Assembly (NCBI GenBank): GCA_963729045.1
Contig: CAVSMN010000013.1
Location: forward strand, 43,642 to 107,641
Direction of reading: 5' to 3'
From: an uncultured Nitrososphaeraceae archaeon
GTDB taxonomy: Archaea; Thermoproteota; Nitrososphaeria; Nitrososphaerales; Nitrososphaeraceae
DNA: 64,000 nucleotides
Made by a program: the position numbers and the translations under genes. Position 1 is the first letter of the stretch; every line of letters starts with the position of its first letter. Under the pieces are notes generated by a model that did not search any database, was not told the origin of the DNA, and saw only the letters and a list, made by a program, of their open reading frames with translations. Shown here piece after piece: positions 47,364 to 63,562 of this stretch.

Positions 47364-48014
47364 ATGTTCAACTTAACAAGTTGTCCACCAGTTATTGTTG
47401 CGACAGTATCAGGCCGTTCCTATTATAAAATAACAAATGTTTTAAAGTCGCTTGACTTACGTTATTTGTCGTTATCACCTGAAGAAGCGGCGCTATCAAC
47501 CGGGAAAGTTATAATTACAACCATCGATGAATCCAAAATCGTAAATAGAGATAACATGTATTTGGATACCCAATTAGAAGAATTTCCTCTGTCCATAAAA
47601 GCAAAAATTCTACAAAATTGCATGGGCTACTTTGGTTCCTCTAAAGAACAATTGATAATCGGGATAGATCCTGGAAAAAGGATTGGCATTTCTATACTGT
47701 ACTGCTATTTCGAACTAGATAGGATAGTTTTGTCTTCGGTTAATTCCACAGTTGAAAAAATCAGTTTTGTTTTATCCTCAATCGAGTCTCCAACTAAAAT
47801 AGTTAGAATTGGTGATGGAAGCTTGGCTCTATCTCATCAAATAGCTGGAATTCTAAAATCGTATTTCAAAGACGAGGTAATTATTGAAATTGTAGACGAA
47901 TATGGAACCTCTATAAGACAAGGTACGGAAAAAAACCGAGGTGGGATCCGTGATATTAGCTCTGCTAGAAAAATTGCTTTTAGAAAGGGGAAAATATGGA
48001 ATAGTTGCAAATAG
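47364..48014 (+). CDS. Conserved hypothetical protein with RNase H-like (GIDPG...VDE.GTS) domain
   Basis: IIGIDPGKRIG, RIGDG, IVDEYGTS, RD..SA..IA. Confidence 0.75.
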   Translation: MFNLTSCPPVIVATVSGRSYYKITNVLKSLDLRYLSLSPEEAALSTGKVIITTIDESKIVNRDNMYLDTQLEEFPLSIKAKILQNCMGYFGSSKEQLIIGIDPGKRIGISILYCYFELDRIVLSSVNSTVEKISFVLSSIESPTKIVRIGDGSLALSHQIAGILKSYFKDEVIIEIVDEYGTSIRQGTEKNRGGIRDISSARKIAFRKGKIWNSCK

Positions 48015-48061: not shown

Positions 48062-48136
48062 GCGAGGTTGGCCCAGCCTGGTTAAGGTACGAGCTTCCCA
48101 AGCTCGGGATCGCGGGTTCAAATCCCGCACTTCGCA
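48062..48136 (+). tRNA. tRNA-Gly (anticodon CCC), intronless, CCA not encoded
   Basis: Acceptor GCGAGGT/ACTTCGC + discriminator A; anticodon arm CGAGC-TTCCCAA-GCTCG; T arm GCGGG-TTCAAAT-CCCGC. Confidence 0.95.
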
Positions 48137-48137
48137 C

Positions 48138-48145: not shown

Positions 48146-48222
48146 GAGATTGATTTGAACCCGCTTGTCAAAATGGTGTACAAAAATTAATGTCGGATTC
48201 TTCTTTCCTGCTTGGTCACCTA

Positions 48223-49254
48223 CTATTTTACAGTCGACAAAAATGTTTCTATTACATTACCGACTTTCTCTGGATATTGATCTGGAACTGCATGACCAGC
48301 GTCTTTTATCTGTACAAGCCAGGCTCCTGGAACTTTACTTGCAATGACTAAAGAGTTTTCATGTGGGACGTAGAGATTATCGTCTGTTCCTGCTATAACT
48401 AACAGAGGCTTGTTTATCTTTGCAAGGTCGTCACAAGCACCATTCCAGTCGGAAGCCACCCAAGCAAATCCAGCTTCCTTCTGATTGTTCAATGTTTCAG
48501 CGGAAAGACTAGGTTTCATTTCCTGGAATGTGATGTTTTCTGGAATCGCTGCAGATTCTGGGTGTAGTTTTATCCAACCCGGTCCTAATGAGGCCGTTAC
48601 AAGCGACTTCATTTCATCCTGAGATACAGGTATATTATTTTGGGTTTTGTTTACAATACCTGCTTGTAATTTGTCAAACTCAGCAGGTCGAGGTATACCA
48701 TCTTTCCCACCACAGGAACCCGCAATAAGTACAATGCTACTAACCTTATCAGGATGCGTAATTGCAAATTGTTGCGTTATGTATGTACCCAAAGAATATC
48801 CAAGAACGTTTGCTTGTTGTATTTTCAAAGCATCCATTAAACCCGCAGTATCATTACCAAGTAATTGTATAGAATACGGTTCGGTCCCTGCAGTGGTATT
48901 TCCGATTCCACGACTGTCAAAAATAATTACCGTATGATTTGACGCTAGTCTAGTTAGAAGGGCTGGATCCCATGCATCCATATTATCAGAAGCACCATTA
49001 TGAAGTATCAAGGGATCTCCTTTACCAAACATTTTATAAGCCATTTCAATATCTCCAACATGGACTTTTTCTAATGGAATGTCTTGTATGTTTACCAAAT
49101 TGTTAGTATTGGTGGAGTTGGCCTGAGTAGCATTTGTTTGACCGTCTACTATATTAGTAAAACCGTTAACCCTAGTCATACTTGAGAAAATTAGAATAGC
49201 TAAAACCGCTACTATGAAAAGATAATCTTTTCTTATCTTGCTATTACTATACAT
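48223..49254 (-). CDS. Secreted alpha/beta hydrolase, paralog 1
   Basis: N-terminal TM, FDSRGIG, GYSLG nucleophile elbow, DAGH; start at 49254 supported by TATA spacing. Confidence 0.9.
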   Translation of the reverse strand: MYSNSKIRKDYLFIVAVLAILIFSSMTRVNGFTNIVDGQTNATQANSTNTNNLVNIQDIPLEKVHVGDIEMAYKMFGKGDPLILHNGASDNMDAWDPALLTRLASNHTVIIFDSRGIGNTTAGTEPYSIQLLGNDTAGLMDALKIQQANVLGYSLGTYITQQFAITHPDKVSSIVLIAGSCGGKDGIPRPAEFDKLQAGIVNKTQNNIPVSQDEMKSLVTASLGPGWIKLHPESAAIPENITFQEMKPSLSAETLNNQKEAGFAWVASDWNGACDDLAKINKPLLVIAGTDDNLYVPHENSLVIASKVPGAWLVQIKDAGHAVPDQYPEKVGNVIETFLSTVK

Positions 49255-49275
49255 AAGCACTTTCATTTGAGGAAG

Positions 49276-49350: not shown

Positions 49351-49423
49351 GAGGAATCGAAGGTTCTCTTCTCCAACAATAATCAAAGGGATTTAAATCC
49401 TCATGGTGAACCCGTTCACCATG
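49351..49423. repeat. Degenerate tRNA-derived site with two palindromes
   Basis: gaggaatcgaaggttctc resembles gagggatcgcgggttctc; ggatttaaatcc; catggtgaac-cc-gttcaccatg. Confidence 0.55.
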
Positions 49424-51120: not shown

Positions 51121-51229
51121 AGGATCTCGTGGTCCTTTATTTTATTATCGGGATTTGAACTTTACAATAAAACGGAGGGATCGCGGGTTCAAATCCCGCA
51201 CTTCGCACTTTTAACGCGGGATTTAACCC
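51121..51229 (+). repeat. Composite site: 31-nt tRNA-Gly 3' copy (51177-51207) with flanking inverted T-arm copies
   Basis: gggatcgcgggttcaaatcccgcacttcgca identical to 48106-48136; cgggatttgaac at 51149; cgcgggattt at 51215. Confidence 0.92.
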
Positions 51230-51728
51230 TTGAATTCTAAAATCTCATCGAAAGCATTGTTCAGAATTTTTGTGTTCTAACTATCTTACTCAATATTTTT
51301 AATTGTCTATCATTGTTTGGTAGACCTCGTAAAAAATTCAAATGGTCAAACCCACCTTCCATAACCATGATAATCTTCAGACCATAAGAAAATTTACATG
51401 GAATGACATATGATCTACAGATTACAACTTTGACTTATCTACCACAATGGATGTAGCAATTATACTCACTGATTATTATGGCGTTTGCAGCGGCCGAATT
51501 TAATCATGTTTTATTAAATCATCAAATAGTTCAGCATTATGTAATTCAGAGTAGACTAGTAATATATAGACATGGTAACAATCAGATCACCTATTCAATA
51601 TATTCCATTTAAATTCGTTAATCAGATACAAACCAGAACGCAATATTTAATTCTTATATAAATTTGATCTATAACAAATTTATCAAATAGATATTATACA
51701 GAAATGAGATTACGATTGTAACATAAAT

Positions 51729-53382
51729 ATGCATAGTGATAATTCAAATCGAAAATTATCTACTAAATCGTTAATGTTACTATCCTTGATACTTATCGTA
51801 TCTGTTTCCATGTTTAGTTCACCCTCATTATCTAGTTTAATGTATTCTCTCCCAAGTCCCTCTTCACAATTAAGATTACAACAGGCATTTGCTCAAAATG
51901 GGGAGGACAATGATGAAAGCGATAGCAGTAGTGAAAGCGATAGCAGTAGTGAAAGCGATAGCAGTAGTGAAAGCGATAGCAGTAGTGAAAGCGATAGCAG
52001 TAGTGAAAGCGATAATCCAGACTCTACGAACCCCACAAACTCTGCACCACCACCACCAACCAGCTCAGACTCTACAGCCTCGGCGGCCACTGATCCATCT
52101 TTATCACCATCTCCAATAACTACAATCCCACCAACATTACAAAATCCCGCTACTCTAACCGATAACGATGACAATTCTTCATCCTCTTCCCCGAATGATA
52201 ATAATGGAGAACAAGAATTGGATTGTGATGATATCTCTGATATGAGATTTCATAGTATCCTCTAATGATCCAAATGGATTTGATCAAGATAATGATGGTA
52301 TAGGTTGTGAAAGCAACGGTGGAAATAGTAATGGAAATGTGACTACCTCCTACTCCTGTAGGGGAATGATGAAGGACCAGATGGAGATTGCTTGTTTAAT
52401 CCTGATTTACCAAAATGTGCTTCTGTTGATGGAGAATGTCCTGATGGATTCTTTCAAAATGAGGATGAACAATGTGTTCCAGATCATCGTGACGGCTGTC
52501 CAGATGGATATCATTCAGTGTAGATGATGATGAAACTGGGCGATGTATTCCAGATTCAGACGGATGTCCAGCAGGGAATGATATTTAGACCTGACCGGAA
52601 AAACCTGTGGCTACAAGGACGATATATGCAAACAAAATCCAGGTCTTGATGATTGTGTAGAAACACCTGATGAATGCGATAATAATAGAGATGATGATAG
52701 TGATGGCTTAACTGATTCTGAAGATCCAGATTGTGGACAACAACAATGCGACCCATCATATCCAAATAATTGCATCCCCTCCCCTCCGCCCGATCTCGAC
52801 TGTGACCAAGGTGGAGACCTTGAGGATGACGAGATTCCTTACCATAACTTCAAGGTAAATGGGCCCGACCCACACGGTTTTGATGGAAATGATAACGACG
52901 GTATTGGATGTGAAACAAATGATAATGACGATAATGATAATGATAATAACGGTAATTCAGATGTGATCAGAGCTTCACAAGATACTTGCGATGATATCTC
53001 TGATACTATAGACCTATACCCTGGTCAACTAGATTCTGAACGTGTGAAAATTATTGCATATTTTGAGGACTGCAAATTAGATGAGGCCTCATTGAAGTTA
53101 AACCTCGTTGGAGATGATGATCTCAAACTAGTCGCTGCAAACTTTGAGGATGGTGAATCAGACGCCGTAGAGGTTGAATTAGAGCCTGTGGATGATGAGG
53201 ATTCTTCAGATAATTCACTATATGAAGCAACTATTTCTGGCACTCAGGAAGGATTAGACTTGGAAACCGGTGAATCTAAAACGATTAGCAACGTGAATGG
53301 AATAGTGTTATGGAATAATGGCGATGATCCAATACAATTTGCTGAAAATAATTCCATAGAATTTGACATTGATTTCGACTGA
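51729..53382 (+). CDS. Large secreted acidic Cys-rich (excalibur-like Ca-binding) protein, several frameshifts
   Basis: Signal peptide, ESDSSS repeats, DPNGFDQDNDGIGCE / DPHGFDGNDNDGIGCE and CDPSYP..CIP.PPPDLDC motifs across frames. Confidence 0.65.
51915..52014 (+). repeat. 18-bp tandem repeat x5.5 (ESDSSS)
   Basis: gaaagcgatagcagtagt read directly. Confidence 0.95.
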
Positions 53383-53456
53383 AGAAGTATCATGGTTGGA
53401 ACCGATCTCTCCTTTATTATCTGATCCAACTTACTATCTTTGAATCAAGGCTTGGT

Positions 53457-53786
53457 GCGGCCGAAACAAATGAACAAACAGATCTTACGTTTCAATTGAC
53501 AGTCACTAATGAAGAAGGTATATCGAGTGAACCAGATGAAGTGATAATAACCATAAATCCTGTTAATACTCCACCACCACCAAATGAAGACCCAAAGACA
53601 ACTGGTGACTTTATCAAAGGTATTATTCAGAATCCATTGAATGTGACAAACTCTATAGATGCTGCAAACCAGATAAAGAACTTACTGTCATATAACAATC
53701 CGAGAAATGACAGGTCGGTCTGTAATTTACTTGATGAACTAGGTAAAGAACAAATGTATAATGTCGGAAACTTGTTGAACTGCTAG
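53457..53786 (+). pseudogene. 3' remnant of a PKD-domain surface protein gene
   Basis: AAETNEQTDLTFQLTVTNEEG.SEPD matches the gene region at about 62053-62135; no 5' part present. Confidence 0.7.
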
Positions 53787-53955
53787 AATGATGGAGAGTT
53801 ATTAGTATGGAGATTGTTTCATTACTCTTCAATCTTATTGGCGAAAGAGGTCGAATCAAAACTTACGCGTATCAATACTGAGTATGCCCTGAAGATCTAC
53901 AGGTCAGTTTGATAGTGAAACCATACATTCTTGATAAATTAATTAAAAGAATATT

Positions 53956-54080
53956 GCGAGGTTGGCCCTTTACGAAGTGGCGGGATCATATCACTATTAA
54001 TATATTTTTGTTTTATGCGAAGGGATCGCGGGTTCAAATCCCGCACTTCGCACTTTTTTTTGAGATTGATTTGAACCCGC
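53956..54080 (+). repeat. tRNA-Gly 5' 13-mer (53956-53968) + 31-nt 3' copy (54022-54052) + inverted T-arm (54069-54080)
   Basis: Exact matches to 48062-48074 and 48106-48136. Confidence 0.92.
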
Positions 54081-54131
54081 TTGTCAAGATGGTGTACAAA
54101 AATTAATGTCGGATTCTTCTTTCCTGCTTGG

Positions 54132-55187
54132 TCACCTACTCTTTACAGTCGACAAAAATGTTTCTATTACATTACCGACTTTCTCTGGATATTGATCTGG
54201 AACTGCATGACCAGCATCTTTTATCTGTACAAGCCAGGCTCCTGGGATTTTTTCTGCAATAATTAAAGAATTAGCAGCTGGTATAGTAACATCTTCAGTT
54301 CCAGTCATTACCAAGGTAGGTTTGGATATATTTGGAAGCTGACTGCATACACCACTCCAGTTGGTTGACTTCCAGTTTTGTACTATATTGTTCTGCTGTA
54401 AATAAGTATCAAGAGTCATACCAGAAGGTAGCAAATCTTTGGGGTTTGTTGGAATGGTTTCAAGGAGGTTGGGATGCAGTTTGATCCATGTTGGTCCGTA
54501 GCTGAGAGATACAGCCGTTTTTATTTCCTGTGGTTCTATTGGAGTGTTATTTACAATACTACTGAGGAACTTCTTAGCCAGTTCTAAATCTGCAGGGGTA
54601 TTAGGTATACTCTCTTTCCCACCACATGTTGAAGAAACAAGTACAAGCCTGTTGACCTTCTCTGGATGAGTAAGAGTAAGCTGCTGAGCTATAAATGAGC
54701 CCATAGAATGTCCCATAACATCTGCTTTTTGAATCTTCAGAGCGTCAAGTAAACCAGCAGTAGTCATTTGCAAATTGCTGAATTGAGAATTGTTTTGTAC
54801 CAGCAGTTGTATTTCCAACTCCACGATTATCAAATATTATTACAGTATGATTTGAGGATAGTTCTCTTAAAATAGTTGGTTCCCAGTCATCCATAGACCC
54901 ACCAACACCCTGAATAAGCAAAATAGGGTCGCCATTACCAAACATCTTGTATGCCATTTCAATATCTCCAACATGGACTTTTTCTAATGGAATATCTTGT
55001 GTGTTTACCAAGCCCGTAACATTATTGGTGGAGTTAGTATTGCTTGAATTGGTCTGGGTAGCATTTGTTTGACCGTTCACTGTATTAGTAAAACCGTTGA
55101 TCACAGTCATACTTGAGAAAATTATAGTAGATAATGAATGCTATAATGAAAAGATAGATCTTTTCTAATCTGTCTATTATTATACAT
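54132..55187 (-). pseudogene. Secreted alpha/beta hydrolase, paralog 2 (frameshifts near 54763 and 55135-55160; may be sequencing errors)
   Basis: Joined ORFs give FDNRGVG...GHSMG...DAGH; N- and C-termini homologous to paralogs 1 and 3. Confidence 0.8.
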
Positions 55188-55289
55188 AACCAAATTCACT
55201 CGAGGAAGTATATAAAGAGGGTGAAGTCTTGTATGAAGACTATCTTGGTCAAATTATTACTCTCTCTATAACCAATAACTAAAGATAGA

Positions 55290-55375
55290 GGGATCGCGGG
55301 TTCTCTCTTTAATTATCGGGATTTGAACTTTACAATAAAGCGAAGGGATCGCGGGTTCAAATCCCGCACTTCGCA
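55290..55375 (+). repeat. Composite site with 31-nt tRNA 3' copy (55345-55375)
   Basis: gggatcgcgggttc (55290), cgggatttgaac (55317), then the 31-mer. Confidence 0.92.
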
Positions 55376-55432
55376 CCTCTTTTCTTTTTGAGTTAGAAAT
55401 AACCATCAATTTCAAAAATGGTTAAAAGTGAA

Positions 55433-55720
55433 TTAGCTAGTCGGAAGTGAAGTTGGAGGTCCGCCAGTAATTTGGGTTGGGTTATCTTTATGAGCTTTAG
55501 AGGCGGTGAAGTTATCCTGATTTGTAATCTTAGAATCTGAAGGAGTAGACGATGGGTAGGCGATAGTCATAACATCTTCAGAACTCCCGCCATAAAGGGT
55601 TGCATACACTTCATGTTGTTCAATCAAACCAATTGGATAAGTCATCGCAGCTAATCCTAAACCTAAAACTATAGGAATTACTGAAAATACTTTATTCACA
55701 TTCTCTATTTTAGATTGCAT
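55433..55720 (-). CDS. Small secreted/membrane-anchored hypothetical protein
   Basis: 95 aa with N-terminal hydrophobic segment ending VYA. Confidence 0.6.
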   Translation of the reverse strand: MQSKIENVNKVFSVIPIVLGLGLAAMTYPIGLIEQHEVYATLYGGSSEDVMTIAYPSSTPSDSKITNQDNFTASKAHKDNPTQITGGPPTSLPTS

Positions 55721-55754
55721 GTATAATAATATTCCAGTAGTAACATGTAATATA

Positions 55755-55923
55755 TTGTTTCTAAGTGAAGATACTTAATCGGGTCTTGCATAAGCGGCTT
55801 GTGGATATAATGCACGACCCTTCTGAAATTACTTTGGGAGTTGGTTATCACTATCTTGATGGGTTTAAAACACCATATATCGATAGTCATGTTTCACTTT
55901 GGTTACAATTTACATTTGAACAA
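55755..55923. repeat. Diverged noncoding repeat of about 170 bp with hairpin, copy 1
   Basis: Aligns with 56912..57093; gggtcttgcat...atgcacgaccc. Confidence 0.7.
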
Positions 55924-56179
55924 CGATAGGAAAATAGTGAGCGCTTGCCCCCGAAATCAACCTAATAGTATTTAGAATAATGACCACCTAACTTGGCTTG
56001 ATTTTATTTCGATACGGTCATCCCTACTAAAATTTTTAAGATATATGATATTTATTAATAGAACAATAGGTCTATAATTCTGAAACATGATGATAATCCT
56101 TCTAAGTCAAACAAAAATATTAGTCAATTAAATAAATATAGATAAAAGGAGAATTGGATGTGGTTCGTCAGTTATTTTA

Positions 56180-56803
56180 TTACTTTATTTCCCATACACT
56201 AGCTGATGTATTTCCTTCATTGTCTACTTCATAATCAAAGAATCCCACTTTATTATTCAGGTAGGATAATTCTCCTTCAGATGCTGTATGAAAGAATAAT
56301 GAACCTTCAAATCTAACATCGCCTTCTGGGTTCGTATTGCCTACGCCTTCTGCTGTCCATGTTACGAATTCCCCGTCTGTAGCAGTATTTATTCCATGTC
56401 CTTCGCCATGAACAGAACCGTTAGGATAGAGTGTTGCCCAATATGTACCAAGGTCATGTGCTGGTATATCCCCAAGTATAGTTGAGTTCGCAACAAATGT
56501 TGATTCAATTATTGGATGAGGATGAACTTCAAGAACCCTTTGATTTGTGATTTTGCCCTGTTCTTCTATGATTAATACTATTTGAGGATGAAAACTTGAT
56601 TTTTGTTGTTGATCCATTGCTAAGGTTGTATTAGTATTGTTGGAAGACGACGAGGTAGTAGTATCTGTCTGAGCAAATACTGTATCGATATTATCACCAA
56701 AGAAATTAAGCCCAGCAACTGTCAACATAGTTATACCTAAGGCAATATAGAATTGTGTCTTTGATAGAGCTATCTTATTTGTTTTTGATAAATTGCGTTT
56801 CAT
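56180..56803 (-). CDS. Secreted hypothetical protein
   Basis: Signal peptide ending VFAQ, S/T/N linker, beta-rich C-terminal domain. Confidence 0.8.
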   Translation of the reverse strand: MKRNLSKTNKIALSKTQFYIALGITMLTVAGLNFFGDNIDTVFAQTDTTTSSSSNNTNTTLAMDQQQKSSFHPQIVLIIEEQGKITNQRVLEVHPHPIIESTFVANSTILGDIPAHDLGTYWATLYPNGSVHGEGHGINTATDGEFVTWTAEGVGNTNPEGDVRFEGSLFFHTASEGELSYLNNKVGFFDYEVDNEGNTSASVWEIK

Positions 56804-56911
56804 TGCAAATTAATTACATTACTTCTATTTAAGTTGTGCTTAAACTTGTTGGTTAGATTGTATCAGATCCGATTTGTTCGGATTGTATGGTCTTTTCTTA
56901 GGCTTAATTTC

Positions 56912-57093
56912 TTGTTTCTAAGTAAAGATACTTGAAAGCGGGGTCCTGCATAAGGAGCGTAGAAATCTAGAGATGCAAGACCCGACTGGAACATTGCTGG
57001 GAGCTAATGTTAACCTTGACTATCCTGATGTGTTTAAAAACACCATGTATGGATACATATGTTTAACCATAGTCACAATATAGTTTTGAACAA
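56912..57093. repeat. Diverged noncoding repeat of about 180 bp with hairpin, copy 2
   Basis: Aligns with 55755..55923; gggtcctgcat...atgcaagaccc. Confidence 0.7.
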
Positions 57094-57155
57094 AATTAGT
57101 TTATAGAACAAGTTTGGGATTTTAAAAGCGGAACACGCCTAAATTACTACAGTGA

Positions 57156-57247
57156 GGAATCGCGGGTTCCCACTTTCGGGATTTGAACTATACATAGCAA
57201 AGAGCGGGTTCAAATCCCGCACTTCGCACTTTTAACGCGGGATTTGA
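57156..57247 (+). repeat. Composite site with 25-nt tRNA 3' copy (57204-57228)
   Basis: ggaatcgcgggttc, cgggatttgaac (57177), gcgggttcaaatcccgcacttcgca, cttttaacgcgggatttga. Confidence 0.92.
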
Positions 57248-57375
57248 TCACATGAATGATAATTATAAGAATATGATCTTCTAATGTCATCATTATCTTA
57301 ACTCAAAAGACATTGATACTCTATAGTTAGGATCACATCATCATTTAAATATTCTAGAGACTATCAGTATGGAAC

Positions 57376-58092
57376 ATGGATAAAGACGTTCAACATATTT
57401 TCCGACCGTCTTTGAGAAACAAATTTTTGGTCGAAATCGTCGGTACTTTTATTTTAGTTTATGCAATTGCTTCTGCTGCAACCGTCTATTCTGATAGTGG
57501 ACAGTTAGGAGTAATTGGAATAGGTTTGGTTCATGCTCTAGTCCTAACTGCAATTGTTTATGCTATAGGATATCGTTCTGGTGCACAGGTTAATCCTGCT
57601 GTTACAATCGGTCTGTTAGTGGCCAAGAAAATTGGTAGAAAGGAAGCAGTTGTGTACATCATTGCTCAGATTATAGGTGCCGTGCTTGCCGCTGCAGTTG
57701 TCTATTCAATTTTTGGCTCTGAAATGTCAGCTAGTGTAACATTGCCTTCCGATGATAATGTGATAAGAGCCCTTATATTAGAAACTGTAATGACGTTTAC
57801 GCTGGTATATGTTGTTTTAGCAACAACCACTTCAAAGAACTTTAAGATAGTTCCATTGGCTGGAATAGCCATAGGTTTTACTCTCGGATTCAATGTTATA
57901 TTCGGAGGCTCAATTACTGGAGGGTCATTAAATCCAGCTCGCTCCTTTGGCCCTGCCTTAATAACCTGGGATTTTGCTTATCAGTGGATTTATTGGGTAG
58001 CACCAATTGCTGGTGGACTAATAGCAGCAGGAGTGTACAAATTGCTTAATACTGAAGAGGAACAGGAAGAAGAAAAACTTCCACCAGAATAA
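57376..58092 (+). CDS. MIP family channel (aquaporin)
   Basis: Two NPA motifs (QVNPAVT, SLNPARSFGP) and six TM segments. Confidence 0.95.
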   Translation: MDKDVQHIFRPSLRNKFLVEIVGTFILVYAIASAATVYSDSGQLGVIGIGLVHALVLTAIVYAIGYRSGAQVNPAVTIGLLVAKKIGRKEAVVYIIAQIIGAVLAAAVVYSIFGSEMSASVTLPSDDNVIRALILETVMTFTLVYVVLATTTSKNFKIVPLAGIAIGFTLGFNVIFGGSITGGSLNPARSFGPALITWDFAYQWIYWVAPIAGGLIAAGVYKLLNTEEEQEEEKLPPE

Positions 58093-58109
58093 TATTTGTA
58101 AAAGAGCCT

Positions 58110-58679
58110 AGATTCAAACACTGATGAGGTTACAGATACCCTGTCCGCTGGAGGAAACCCAGGTGGAATAGCCTACAATCCCTGACAACGGTAACATGTA
58201 TGCAGCAAGCACAAATTCAAACTCTGTCTCTGTAATTGGGTCAATAATGCCGATTGCAGATGACGGACTTGACCAAACTGTAGACTCTGGTGTGACAGAG
58301 CATCTAGATGGCCGTGGTGGTACTGACCCAAGGAATGAAACAATGACTTACCAGTGTACTCGCACAAACGGACTTGGAGTCACTCTGAATAACTTAATAG
58401 CAGTAAATCTTCACGGCATCCCGGACCATATTCCAACAAACGTTCGCATGTGAACTGGTTGTGACAAACGAGTAAGATTCGGTAAGTAAACGTGATAACG
58501 TCACTATAACTGGGGTTCTAATTTTGAAGGCAAATTGATTAAGGTAATAACATCAATATCCAGGTTAAAGAAAACTCTGGTAATAAAGTAGGCGACGGTC
58601 TGGTAAAGGAAATATGTATTCTGACTCTCCTATTTTCCAAGGATAATCTAAAGAGGAGGATAGTCAAGTAATACCTTAG
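58110..58679 (+). pseudogene. Heavily degraded YVTN/PKD surface-protein gene
   Basis: GIAYNP..., DQTVDSG and a 3' end (tattctgactctcctattttccaagg) homologous to the end of 61507..62343; many stops and frameshifts. Confidence 0.7.
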
Positions 58680-58750
58680 AGTTTTAAGTCTAAAATTGAA
58701 CCTACTCATCTAGAGTGGTTTCAAAATACATCGCTCTAAATTTAAGAAGA

Positions 58751-58881
58751 GGGATCGCGGGTTCTCTCTCCTTTATTTTCGGGATTTGAACTTTTACTAA
58801 ACAAGAAGCGGGTTCAAATCCCGCACTTCGCACCTGATGTTTAGAGATTCTTTGCAATTACTGTATTTTGTGCGGGAATTT
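58751..58881 (+). repeat. Composite site with 25-nt tRNA 3' copy (58808-58832)
   Basis: gggatcgcgggttc (58751), cgggatttgaac (58780), 25-mer, inverted gtgcgggaattt (58870). Confidence 0.92.
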
Positions 58882-60104: not shown

Positions 60105-61155
60105 TTATATGTTATCTGCTCCAATGTCACCAAGTTGTTCACGAAGTGCAGGAGCTACTTGTGTACATATTAACTTGGTAGCTTGTATCAGTTTCTCTTG
60201 AGGTAACGATCCAGGGTTCATCATAAAAGTGAACCTAGAGATACCACCTAGTGCTTTGCTGTGTCTAATGATCTTTTCAACTACCTCAGTTGGATTGCCT
60301 ATGACTAGTGCTCCTTCGGGATCACGCTGAGCATTAAAACTTGTTCTTGTCATCCTGGGCCATCCACGCTCTTTTCCAATCTCAGTCATAGTATGAGCGT
60401 AGCCTGGAAAGAAATCATCGATTGCTTCTTGAGTTTTATCTGCTACATAGCCAAGTGAATGTATGCCTACTTTCAATTTGTCAGGAGAATGTCCAGCTTG
60501 TTTACCTGCCGTCTTATAGAGATCAATCAATGGGCGAAAATAACGTGTTCTCCCTCCTATTATAGCAACCATTAGAGGAAGGCCAAGGTTACCCGCACGT
60601 ACAAACGATTCAGGAGTCCCACCAACACCTATCCACATGGGTAGATGGATTCTGCAAGGGTCTTGGATAGATTCCTTGTCCAGTCAGAGCAGGTCGATAT
60701 TTACCAGACCAATGGACATGCTCATTTTCACGAATCTTTAACAGCAATTCGAGCTTCTCCGAAAAAAGGGTATCGTAGTCATCCAACTTCAGGCCAAACA
60801 ATGGGAATGCCTCAATGAATGAGCCGCGGCCCACTACCATCTCCGCCCTACCTTGAGACAAAAGATCCAAAGTTGCGAATTCTTGGAATATCCTTACGGG
60901 ATCGGCTGCACTCAATACCGTTACTGCACTGGTAAGGCGTATATGTTTAGTTCGTGCTGCGGCCGCTCCTAGGATGACAGCTGGAGCAGAATCAAGGAAT
61001 CCGTGACGGTGATGTTCTCCTACTCCAAATACATCCAATCCTAGTTTATCAGCTATTTCGATTTGTTCGATCAATTGTTGCAAACGCTCAGCTGCGCCAA
61101 TAGAGAGGCTTTTATCATCATGGGCAGCTGCAAAGCTATCAATCCCTACTTGCAT
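60105..61155 (-). CDS. LLM-class flavin-dependent oxidoreductase; +1 frameshift near 60645
   Basis: [31 protein letters not shown]; then [12 protein letters not shown] in the next frame. Confidence 0.88.
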
Positions 61156-62368: not shown

Positions 62369-62419
62369 GCGGGTTCAAATCCCGCACTTCGCACTTTTTT
62401 ATGATTGATTTGAACCCGC
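62369..62419 (+). repeat. 25-nt tRNA 3' copy (62369-62393) + oligo-T + inverted T-arm (62408-62419)
   Basis: Read directly; same right flank as the tRNA and the 54022 copy. Confidence 0.92.
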
Positions 62420-62475: not shown

Positions 62476-63507
62476 CTATTTTACAGTCGACAGGAATGTT
62501 TCTATTATTTTACTGACTTCCTCTGGATATTGATCTGGAACTGCATGACCAGCGTCTTTTATCTGTACAAGCCAGGCTCCTGGAACTTTACTGGCAATGA
62601 CTAAAGCATTCTGATGAGGTTCGTACTGGTTATCGTCAGTACCTGTTATAACCAACAGGGGCTTGTCTATCTTTGCAAGGTCGTCACAGACACCGCTCCA
62701 GTTTTTTGCTTCCCAGGCCACACCCAAGTTGTTTTGATTGTTCAATGTATCAGGAGAAAGACCAGGCTTTGTTGATGCTAGTGTCATATTTTCTGGAATA
62801 TCAAGAGATTCAGGATGCAGTTTTATCCAACCAGATCCTAATGATGCAGTTACGAGAGCTTTGAAATCTTCTTGAGGAACGGTTACATTATTTTGAGATT
62901 TGTTTACAATATCAGCCTGCAATTTTAAAAACTCAGCCGGTTTAGGTATACCATCTTTACCACCACAGGAACCAGAAATAAGTATAATGCTACTAACCTT
63001 ATCAGGATGTGTGATTGCAAATTGTTGCGTTACGTATGTACCTAGAGAATGTCCAAGAATGCTTGCATTTTGTATTTTCAAAGCATCCATTAAACCCGCA
63101 GTATCATTGCCAAGTAACTTTACAGAATACGGTTCGGTACCTGCAGTGGTATTTCCTATTCCACGACTATCAAAAATAATTACTGTGTTATTTGACGCTA
63201 GTCTAGTTAAAAGGGCTGGATCCCATGCATCCATATGATCAGAAGCACCATTATGAAGAATTATGGGGTCACCTTTGCCAAACATCTTGTACGCCATTTC
63301 AATATCTCCAACACGGACTTTTTCTAATGGAATATCCTCTGTATTTACTAAGCCCGTAACATTTGTGGAGTTTGCTTGGGTAGCATTTGTTTGACTATAC
63401 GCAACATTAGTAAAACCGTTGATCAAAGTTGTACTTGAGAAAATTATGGTAGAAATGAATACTACAATGAAAAGATAATCTTTTCTTACCTGTCTACTAT
63501 TATTCAT
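62476..63507 (-). CDS. Secreted alpha/beta hydrolase, paralog 3
   Basis: GHSLG nucleophile motif; clearly similar to paralog 1; TATA at the same offset. Confidence 0.9.
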   Translation of the reverse strand: MNNSRQVRKDYLFIVVFISTIIFSSTTLINGFTNVAYSQTNATQANSTNVTGLVNTEDIPLEKVRVGDIEMAYKMFGKGDPIILHNGASDHMDAWDPALLTRLASNNTVIIFDSRGIGNTTAGTEPYSVKLLGNDTAGLMDALKIQNASILGHSLGTYVTQQFAITHPDKVSSIILISGSCGGKDGIPKPAEFLKLQADIVNKSQNNVTVPQEDFKALVTASLGSGWIKLHPESLDIPENMTLASTKPGLSPDTLNNQNNLGVAWEAKNWSGVCDDLAKIDKPLLVITGTDDNQYEPHQNALVIASKVPGAWLVQIKDAGHAVPDQYPEEVSKIIETFLSTVK

Positions 63508-63562
63508 AACCAATTTCACTCGACGGAGTATATAAACCAAATCGAGTCTCAGATGAGAAATG

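Follow-up and report, generated by a model that had tools for sequence, protein, structure and literature searches.

A conserved three-part arm of predicted attachment sites in the tRNA-Gly(CCC)-anchored cassette rows of soil Nitrosocosmicus archaea

A tRNA-Gly(CCC) gene anchors a row of small, integrase-less cassettes in the stretch of DNA analyzed here, a 64,000-nucleotide (nt) segment, hereafter the window, that runs to the end of a contig from an uncultured Nitrososphaeraceae archaeon (GCA_963729045.1, CAVSMN010000013.1, positions 43,642 to 107,641; G000:C13:43642-107641 in our numbering). The genome is that of a Nitrosocosmicus, a soil ammonia-oxidizing archaeon, and four of the cassette seams carry the conserved three-part arm that is the subject of this report. 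The anchoring gene (48062–48137, + strand) is the sole tRNA gene in the window (ARAGORN; Rfam tRNA model, 58.3 bits), and its 3′ end (GGGATCGCGGGTTCAAATCCCGCACTTCGCA, 25–31 nt; the final 31 nt of the gene, 48106–48136, are here called the core) is repeated six more times in the same orientation: as 31-nt copies at 51177–51207, 54022–54052 and 55345–55375, and as 25-nt copies at 57204–57228, 58808–58832 and 62369–62393. The second copy closes a pseudo-tRNA (53956–54052, +) in which a 5′ acceptor/D fragment (gcgaggttggccc) and filler precede the core, and which gives a weak match to the tmRNA model in an Rfam scan. The segments between cores measure 1.3–3.5 kb each, and a Pfam scan of the 20 open reading frames (ORFs) between 46 and 64 kb finds hydrolases, MIP, a luciferase-like protein and PKD, with no integrase among them. 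Three paralogous alpha/beta hydrolases, of which one is broken, form part of the cargo, along with a hydrolase of the S9 type, a MIP aquaporin, a luciferase-like monooxygenase whose gene is split, a PKD protein and several proteins without a family match.

The direct repeats are the 3′ end of an intact tRNA standing at the row's end, as is typical of tRNA-targeting attachment (att) sites, and the segments have the features of cis-mobilizable elements (CIMEs), being flanked at either end by att-like repeats, lacking genes for recombination or transfer, and having autonomous, integrase-bearing relatives at the same tRNA. The cassettes behave as units, since homology among three copies of the aquaporin cassette begins exactly at the core and other samples show different DNA after the cores: contigs from other soil and rhizosphere samples (runs X2 and X7; the sample runs consist of short Logan contigs that break at repeats, stretches they leave uncovered are uninformative, and the RNA-library runs give contigs only) diverge right after the tRNA end (48138/48142) and after the core at 55345–55375 (at 55378), so that cassette order varies among populations.

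An initial reading of the window (the first-pass annotation) had described a half-core, a pyrimidine-rich tract, an inverted 12-mer and an A-rich spacer to the left of four of these tRNA 3′-end copies, and we find this arrangement at all four sites. The inverted 12-mer CGGGATTTGAAC is present as an exact + strand copy at 51149–51160, 55317–55328, 57177–57188 and 58780–58791, in each case 19–26 nt upstream of its exact reverse complement within the core copy; with one mismatch allowed the window contains 12 matches against 0.26 expected, a number that none of 100 shuffles reaches. The half-core lies at 55290–55303 (GGGATCGCGGGTTC), 57156–57169 (the variant ggaatcgcgggttc) and 58751–58764, all on the + strand, and is degenerate at the first site (ggatctcgtggtcc, 51122–51135, +), where a search with up to two mismatches does not recover it. 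At that threshold the half-core 13-mer GGATCGCGGGTTC has eight matches in the window against 0.17 expected, three of them being the arm half-cores at 55291, 57157 (one mismatch) and 58752. The spacing at the four sites is likewise as described, with 7–15 nt for the pyrimidine-rich tract (Y-tract) and 15–16 nt for the spacer. The DNA upstream had been called unrelated, which holds among the four sites of the window, but each flank has homologues elsewhere, for example at C10:149275 and C10:170516; in all, the window's genome has six arms, the four described here and two on contig C10. In addition, a decayed three-part arm that has lost its core (ggaatcgaaggttc followed by gggatttaaat; 49353–49398, +) marks the fused junction of two hydrolase cassettes.

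To place these boxes in a wider context we gathered 190 unique instances of the core across the genus (34 genomes), made up of 29 tRNAs, 46 cores with an 11-mer-like box upstream and 115 without, and, as a guard against circularity, chose arms by the half-core alone (≤2 mismatches, 30–100 nt upstream), a selection that returns 34 of the 161 non-tRNA cores. In these 34 arms the inverted 11-mer GGGATTTGAAC is exact 28 times and departs by one mismatch in four arms and by two in the remaining two; shuffles match it at ≤2 mismatches in 0.6% of cases. Its mean top-base frequency is 0.98 (1.87 bits) and that of the half-core 0.95, with the TTC of the latter conserved in 100%, as against 0.66 (0.77 bits) for the first 13 nt of the spacer and 0.50–0.66 for the Y-tract, whose genus-wide length ranges from 8 to 22 nt while that of the spacer ranges from 15 to 25 nt. 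The inverted box is thus far more conserved than the intervening DNA (about 0.98 vs. 0.50–0.66) rather than no better conserved than the spacers, so that the earlier observation is not refuted, although the invariance once ascribed to the whole 12-mer belongs to a near-invariant 11-mer, the first base being either c or a. The same partition is seen when two aquaporin-cassette copies with 87% identity in their flanks are compared: both boxes are identical and the Y-tract and spacer strongly different. A soil-metagenome set, in which arms were picked by 11-mer and core and those with <45 nt upstream were dropped, together with loci L133, L141, L151 and L156, where perfect palindromes of unrelated sequence fit the pattern, replicates the half-core (≤2 mismatches) in 18 of 27 unique arms; in the null, ≤3 mismatches are reached in 0.15%. 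Extra core-type copies thus stand beside the presumed crossover site and are better conserved than their surroundings, as is characteristic of accessory core-type sites.

The arm is confined to one genus. The pattern GGGATTTGAAC-N10-24-GGTTCAAATCCCG occurs in nine of 201 genomes of the family, all of them from the same genus (the window's genome and eight of 33 others), and in none of the 167 family genomes from 17 other genera; a looser arm pattern is absent from 400 other genomes of the phylum spanning 160 other genera, and viral contigs yield no match to the arm pattern, which is found in 41 stretches of metagenome contigs. The tRNA-Gly(CCC) end is present in 34 of 34 genomes of the genus, mostly in multiple copies, and rows in relatives extend to more than 20 seams across about 56 kb. 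In the window's genome the tRNA-Lys sites (CCACCGAAC, eight on contig C21) leave out the T-arm and lack an inverted box. Together, these comparisons mark the arm as a real, conserved and genus-restricted module of the predicted att sites.

Its organization across the genus points to a single inserted unit. Among 52 unique stretches of half-core, Y-tract and box, a core comes next, within 45 nt, in 45 cases. Of the others, two lead into a second unit (L016, L123), one into another half-core, two into cores cut exactly after TTCAAAT and one into a degenerate core; the remaining stretch is a chance match. One hydrolase-cassette flank (ctctctataaccaataactaaagatagag) leads into a plain core in the relative G043, into one unit in the window, and into a double unit both in G180 and in a contig from soil. 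From this census, and from the same flank occurring with zero, one or two units, the arm reads as one discrete element of ~45–60 nt (Y-tract, GGGATTTGAAC, spacer, (GGGATC)GCGGGTTC) lodged between the TTC and the AAAT of the T-loop. Arms are also mosaic at the half-core, with one flank family carrying both the Y class ‘ttattttc’ (five arms) and ‘taagcaaa’ (three arms), and identical Y-tracts are found beside unrelated flanks. An extra box, AAGTGCGGG, which is the inverse of the 3′ part of the core, lies 17–25 nt upstream of the half-core in seven of the 34 arms, and it also occurs upstream of two plain cores.

Related inverted boxes are found on the right of cores as well. An inverted GATTTGAAC is found once, without mismatch, no more than 45 nt from each of the window's seven cores, on the left in four cases and on the right in three. 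The latter are the tRNA itself and the cores at 54022 and 62369, which have no left arm and instead carry a type A box (GATTTGAACCCGC), which repeats the left half of the core and the T-loop in inverted form, at 48152–48164 (where ttgtcaa/gtgtacaa repeats follow), 54068–54080 and 62407–62419, all +. A type B-like box (gcgggatttaa), a degenerate inverted copy of T-loop plus right half, lies at 51216–51226 (+), and a type B box (GCGGGATTTGA) stands at the start of the aquaporin cassette (57237–57247, +). Genus-wide, type A follows 40 and type B 10 of the 190 cores, and one type A arm adjoins an intact integrase (L048). Both the related boxes of the right arms and the single-unit nature of the left arm in the T-loop had been missed by the first-pass annotation.

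A candidate enzyme is available from the relatives. An intact integrase gene of 365–371 amino acids directly follows tRNA-Gly(CCC) in five of them, and a broken copy lies inside the row of G168. The protein matches Pfam PF16795 at 34–36 bits, and the best fold match of its model (mean pLDDT 81.7; Foldseek against the Protein Data Bank, PDB) is the catalytic domain of the SSV1 integrase (3vcf_A; E 3.5e-3, probability 1.00, TM 0.62), which by the modeled fold makes it an SSV-type tyrosine integrase. It has 176 homologues, with the source name ‘integrase’ in Ca. Nitrosocosmicus and Nitrososphaera; one of them is a 360-residue protein (P0001) from Ca. Nitrosocosmicus arcticus, a relative that is in culture. 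The N-terminal 200 residues have no Pfam match, and the whole-model Foldseek search against the PDB resolved no N-terminal domain; from the sequence and two predicted helices we have the impression that residues ~12–45 may form a ribbon-helix-helix. In the right arms of integrase-bearing elements an inverted ATTTGAA or a type A box comes first, and after it a pair of TTGTTGAC-like direct repeats, which might be the true arm sites. At their far ends (the P arms), a partial tRNA copy is joined to a core that forms the perfect palindrome CGAAGTGCGGG-TTCAAAT-CCCGCACTTCG (L039:400, L027:18108). This symmetry places the overlap on the T-loop, a placement that also fits the hybrid core at L006, with its left half from tRNA-Gly and its right half from another tRNA, and the two cores cut after TTCAAAT. 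We infer that binding elements of 11–12 bp flank a 7-nt T-loop overlap and that the left element of the tRNA is the weak one.

Several unusual sites accompany these elements. L006 (G148:C96) and L005 (G180:C114) have three-part arms joined to cores with the right half of a different tRNA (…CCCGGCCGGAGCA), and by their sequence are hybrid sites in which the switch falls inside the shared T-loop. Partial tRNA-Gly copies terminate cassettes in the window (53956–54052), in the C10:168906 region, at L039:400 and at L027:18108; in them the 5′ acceptor/D part is fused to the T-arm without an anticodon arm, and those of the relatives also keep the promoter-like upstream flank and have a perfect 11-bp palindrome around the T-loop as their junction. 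At C11:165591-167017 of the window's genome, a tRNA-Ala(CGC) whose T-arm is identical to that of tRNA-Gly(CCC) is followed by a type B-like right arm. L008 (G168:C2:610229-613274, − strand) encodes a second integrase family of 303 amino acids, PF16795-like, whose first 16 codons (MLRPGFEPGIVALRGQ) are the reverse complement of the 3′ half of another tRNA, so placing an SSV-style att site within the gene; immediately upstream are a small Zn-ribbon ORF and a three-part arm whose core has diverged. The start of a family-1 integrase at this locus, MLRPGFEPG, coded by the reverse complement of another tRNA's T-arm, prompted the idea that the arm is a remnant of the 5′ end of an SSV-type integrase gene, which we rejected on finding Y-tract lengths that are not multiples of three and no ORF common to the arms.

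The cargo itself shows signs of both duplication and decay. The alpha/beta-hydrolase paralogues lie at 48223–49266, 54132–55110 and 62476–63540 (−), each in a cassette that has a type A right arm at its start; the second of the three is broken into two ORFs, and the same cassette is found in the rows of G043, G168 and G186. The three aquaporin cassettes of the assembly (window 57204–58832; C10:168906-170558; C10:144235-142697, −) share 87–94% identity, and in the third the homology ends 1–3 nt short of the half-core, after which comes a gene with a GSGKT helicase motif. The ORF at 51729–52265 contains six 18-nt tandem repeats (51896–52032) and encodes an acidic Ser/Asp/Glu-rich repeat protein without a family match. 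The luciferase-like monooxygenase (60105–61155, −) is divided between two overlapping ORFs of 181 and 177 amino acids, probably through a frameshift or as a pseudogene. Immediately upstream of the tRNA lies a 216-amino-acid ORF (47364–48014, +), syntenic in G168 and G073, with a weak DUF460 match (E 3e-4).

For the function of the boxes, the first-pass annotation had offered two suggestions, accessory recombinase-binding sites or an attC-like single-strand hairpin, and the former fits best, as a prediction from sequence: the boxes are partial copies of the presumed core-type site, are better conserved than their surroundings, and sit on the P arm of cassettes with cores that correspond to the target of an SSV-type tyrosine integrase carried by relatives at this tRNA. 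The three-part left arm would then form the P side of the sites by which small cassettes without an integrase attach, and its boxes would be accessory or secondary core-type integrase half-sites, a reading to which we assign a probability of roughly 0.5. In mechanistic terms, the crossover site would be the T-arm, comprising GCGGG, the 7-nt T-loop TTCAAAT as overlap, and, as the strong right element, CCCGC together with the acceptor strand. A unit in the T-loop would yield, from left to right, a left half-site that stops at TTC, a half-site of ‘overlap plus CCC’ in inverted orientation and a full core, such that the half-core would represent the left element with the first three overlap bases and the 11-mer the inverted overlap with CCC. 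The two boxes would bind further protomers of the ~365-residue SSV-type tyrosine integrase next to the weak left half of the core, and the half-core may in addition serve as a secondary strand-exchange point at GCGGG^TTC, which would account for unit copy numbers of zero, one or two and for the mosaic arms. Anatomy, conservation, distribution, unit copy number, mosaicism and the integrase family at this tRNA in relatives are observed; where the strands would be cut, whether integrase would bind the boxes, and how this might influence the efficiency or direction of recombination are predictions of the model.

A number of observations weigh against accessory half-sites. The Y-tract (8–22 nt) and spacer (15–25 nt) vary without fixed spacing or helical phasing, which is ill-suited to a rigid cooperative protein array, and the 11-mer covers only 3–4 bp of the presumed 12-bp binding element. 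The unit is dispensable, and the boxes could owe their conservation to being exchanged again and again with intact cores, and not to selection for binding. Of the 10 joints listed for sample contigs along the window, which fall mostly between paralogous hydrolase genes, none coincides with a half-core or an 11-mer. The three-part arm is absent from the next core downstream of all seven integrase-bearing elements examined, so that autonomous elements do not need it. No integrase is found in the window or beside the tRNA-Gly-type arrays of this assembly, which is 87% complete and in which both arrays reach contig ends (the window end and C10:170558); PF00589 has no match in it, its four PF16795 matches all lie on contigs away from those arrays, and the closest paralogue, which belongs to the same family and follows tRNA-Ala(CGC) on C11, is frameshifted (187 + 169 amino acids).

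Dispensability is also the starting point of a different explanation, in which the arm is a functionless scar, left by a collapsed cargo-less cassette or by unequal exchange in the T-loop, copied along with its neighbors and with boxes maintained by exchange with intact cores. The same cassette end occurs with zero units, 115 of the 161 non-tRNA cores are armless, integrase-bearing elements exist without the unit, decayed copies are found at 49353–49398 and 51122–51135, and the Y-tract with its box resembles by eye the ‘T-rich tract plus GATTTGAAC’ of type A right arms. Yet in homologous arms the boxes remain ~98% identical where Y-tract and spacer fall to 50–66%, 51 of 52 cases conform to one compact unit, without the spread expected of deletion remnants, and identities of 11–14 nt are short for homologous conversion. 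Direct descent of Y-tract and 11-mer from type A right arms finds no support: a fixed-frame profile of those arms scores the left arms at 2.80 bits vs. 3.21 for flank-shuffled controls, a weak test given that Y-tracts vary in length, and with the profile no better than controls, descent from a collapsed cassette is not demonstrated. We regard a scar as possible but rather doubtful. Still more tentative is a signal for transcription or a small RNA, with the A-rich spacer (tTTACAATAAAg) as a TATA-like promoter reading across the core or with the arm as a hairpin RNA element or terminator. A spacer start of T(T/A)TACAA that is moderately conserved (68–85% per position) and T-rich tracts downstream of cores would suit such a role, but an Rfam scan (E ≤1) gives no match on the arms, the genes downstream of arms lie on either strand, and the RNA-library contigs listed cover cassette genes and not arms, a weak point since they are contigs only and cannot show starts or ends. 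The small 5′ hairpin likewise lacks covariation: as a second hairpin candidate (agaggga/tctctct around the half-core) it has 5.03 of eight in-register pairs against 4.99 for shuffled partners, the former figure being equalled or exceeded by 833 of 2000 shuffles, and was dismissed as an effect of purine/pyrimidine composition. Overall, we hold a transcriptional role to be highly implausible.

The other suggestion of the first-pass annotation, a single-strand hairpin of the attC or CTX kind, requires the 11/12-mer to pair with the core's T-loop and 3′ T-stem, so that the recombinase would act on, or be blocked by, a fold that competes with the T-arm hairpin. The fold that had been proposed, a 12-bp stem with a 19–26-nt loop in competition with the T-arm, is indeed the minimum-energy structure of the single-stranded DNA at the four sites (−13.7 to −18 kcal/mol, z −1.8 to −4.7, vs. 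−5.6 for the T-arm alone), and 0 to 10 of 200 shuffles fold equally well. Conserved inverted boxes that flank a variable center resemble attC, variable spacing fits a loop better than a protein array, the right-arm boxes give alternative hairpins with the same T-loop, and two junctions show matched changes (L036:5395 and, in part, L036:9713). Good energetics notwithstanding, compensation fails where it can be followed: 13 of 14 junctions with a changed 11-mer or partner are uncompensated, leaving one that is partly so, 26 of 27 variant junctions of the type A box are not fully compensated, and c and a alternate freely at the first position of the 12-mer. The stem is also too short, spanning only the 7-nt T-loop, that is, the overlap, plus 4–5 bp, and hence cannot restore a pair of binding arms; nothing within the arm pairs with the half-core, well conserved though it is, and an integron-type integrase is lacking, with no PF00589 match in the genome. 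The hairpin is thus not supported, and we consider it quite unlikely. By analogy with known systems, a more active part for the ~50-nt unit is also conceivable, in which a single strand exchange by the integrase at GCGGG^TTC would join a full T-arm core to a site lacking the right half (half-core plus Y-tract) and be resolved by replication, as in integron attC × attI recombination or CTX integration, with the 11-mer supplying the missing partner by folding or binding. We think this improbable; if it were true, the tRNA rows would be an archaeal gene-capture system with its own cassette-site grammar, built from a tRNA T-arm and an SSV-type integrase.

Returning to accessory half-sites as the favored reading, the closest functional analogue is attI1 of class 1 integrons, which carries supplementary integrase-binding direct repeats, DR1 and DR2; these are dispensable for the basic reaction and are thought to favor one combination of partners or to act as a topological filter (PMC8946536). 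The arm shares with attI1 the extra copies of recognition sequence on one side of the crossover site, the setting in a cassette platform, and dispensability. It differs in that the relatives encode an archaeal SSV-type tyrosine integrase rather than IntI, the origin of the site is the T-arm of a tRNA and one of the boxes is inverted; unlike the single attI1, moreover, the boxes stand at every seam that carries a unit, and the number of units varies. The closest setting is tandem accretion with CIMEs, together with the arrays of archaeal integrated elements. Such elements form tandem arrays that re-use one att site (Krupovic et al. 2019, PMC6563490), and in its main text, as far as available, that study does not mention Nitrosocosmicus or describe an arm architecture. 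In both cases direct repeats of a tRNA 3′ end bound the segments, small segments without integrase occur, and autonomous relatives occupy the same tRNA; the present rows are set apart by cassettes of 1.3–3.5 kb with one or two housekeeping-type cargo genes and by rows of more than 20 seams in relatives. SSV1/SSV2-type sites consist of core-type inverted repeats around an overlap on a tRNA loop (PMC8371274). The relatives' integrase has an SSV-like catalytic domain, and the site similarly lies in a tRNA gene and has stem-loop binding arms with a 7-nt overlap, but the integrase gene stands intact beside the tRNA instead of being split, the predicted overlap falls on the T-loop and not on the anticodon loop, and there are additional half-sites.

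Other comparisons are more distant. In the attC layout, inverted boxes are arranged about a variable center (PMC8946536). The inverted boxes here, too, can fold around their variable center as a hairpin mimicking part of the duplex site, but they show no covariation, no IntI or Xer is found, and the stem lacks the length to form a pair of binding arms; the missing IntI and covariation argue that the arm is not an attC. Among phages, the attP(+) of CTX is likewise a hairpin that mimics part of the duplex site, and it shares these likenesses and differences. The FRT site of the yeast 2-micron plasmid has a third, dispensable 13-bp symmetry element beside its minimal two-element site, and so resembles the arm in having an extra core-type element next to the minimal site; unlike the fixed, single-copy element of that eukaryotic plasmid, the arm has variable spacing and one inverted box. 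Heterobivalent, lambda-type arms do not correspond to what we find, because the half-core and the 11-mer are both copies of core sequence, and core-like boxes are not lambda-type arm sites.

A literature search found no publication describing these Nitrosocosmicus arrays or the arm. To our knowledge, ammonia-oxidizing archaea have no genetic tools, and little is known of how they gain accessory genes. The rows show soil Nitrosocosmicus shuffling single-gene cassettes at tRNA genes, and the arm offers a concrete, testable site grammar of core, half-sites, right-arm repeats and candidate integrase. If the half-sites tune the efficiency or direction of recombination, this would explain how cassettes without an integrase stay mobilizable or stay put, and the pair of integrase and att site could then be tried as an integration tool.

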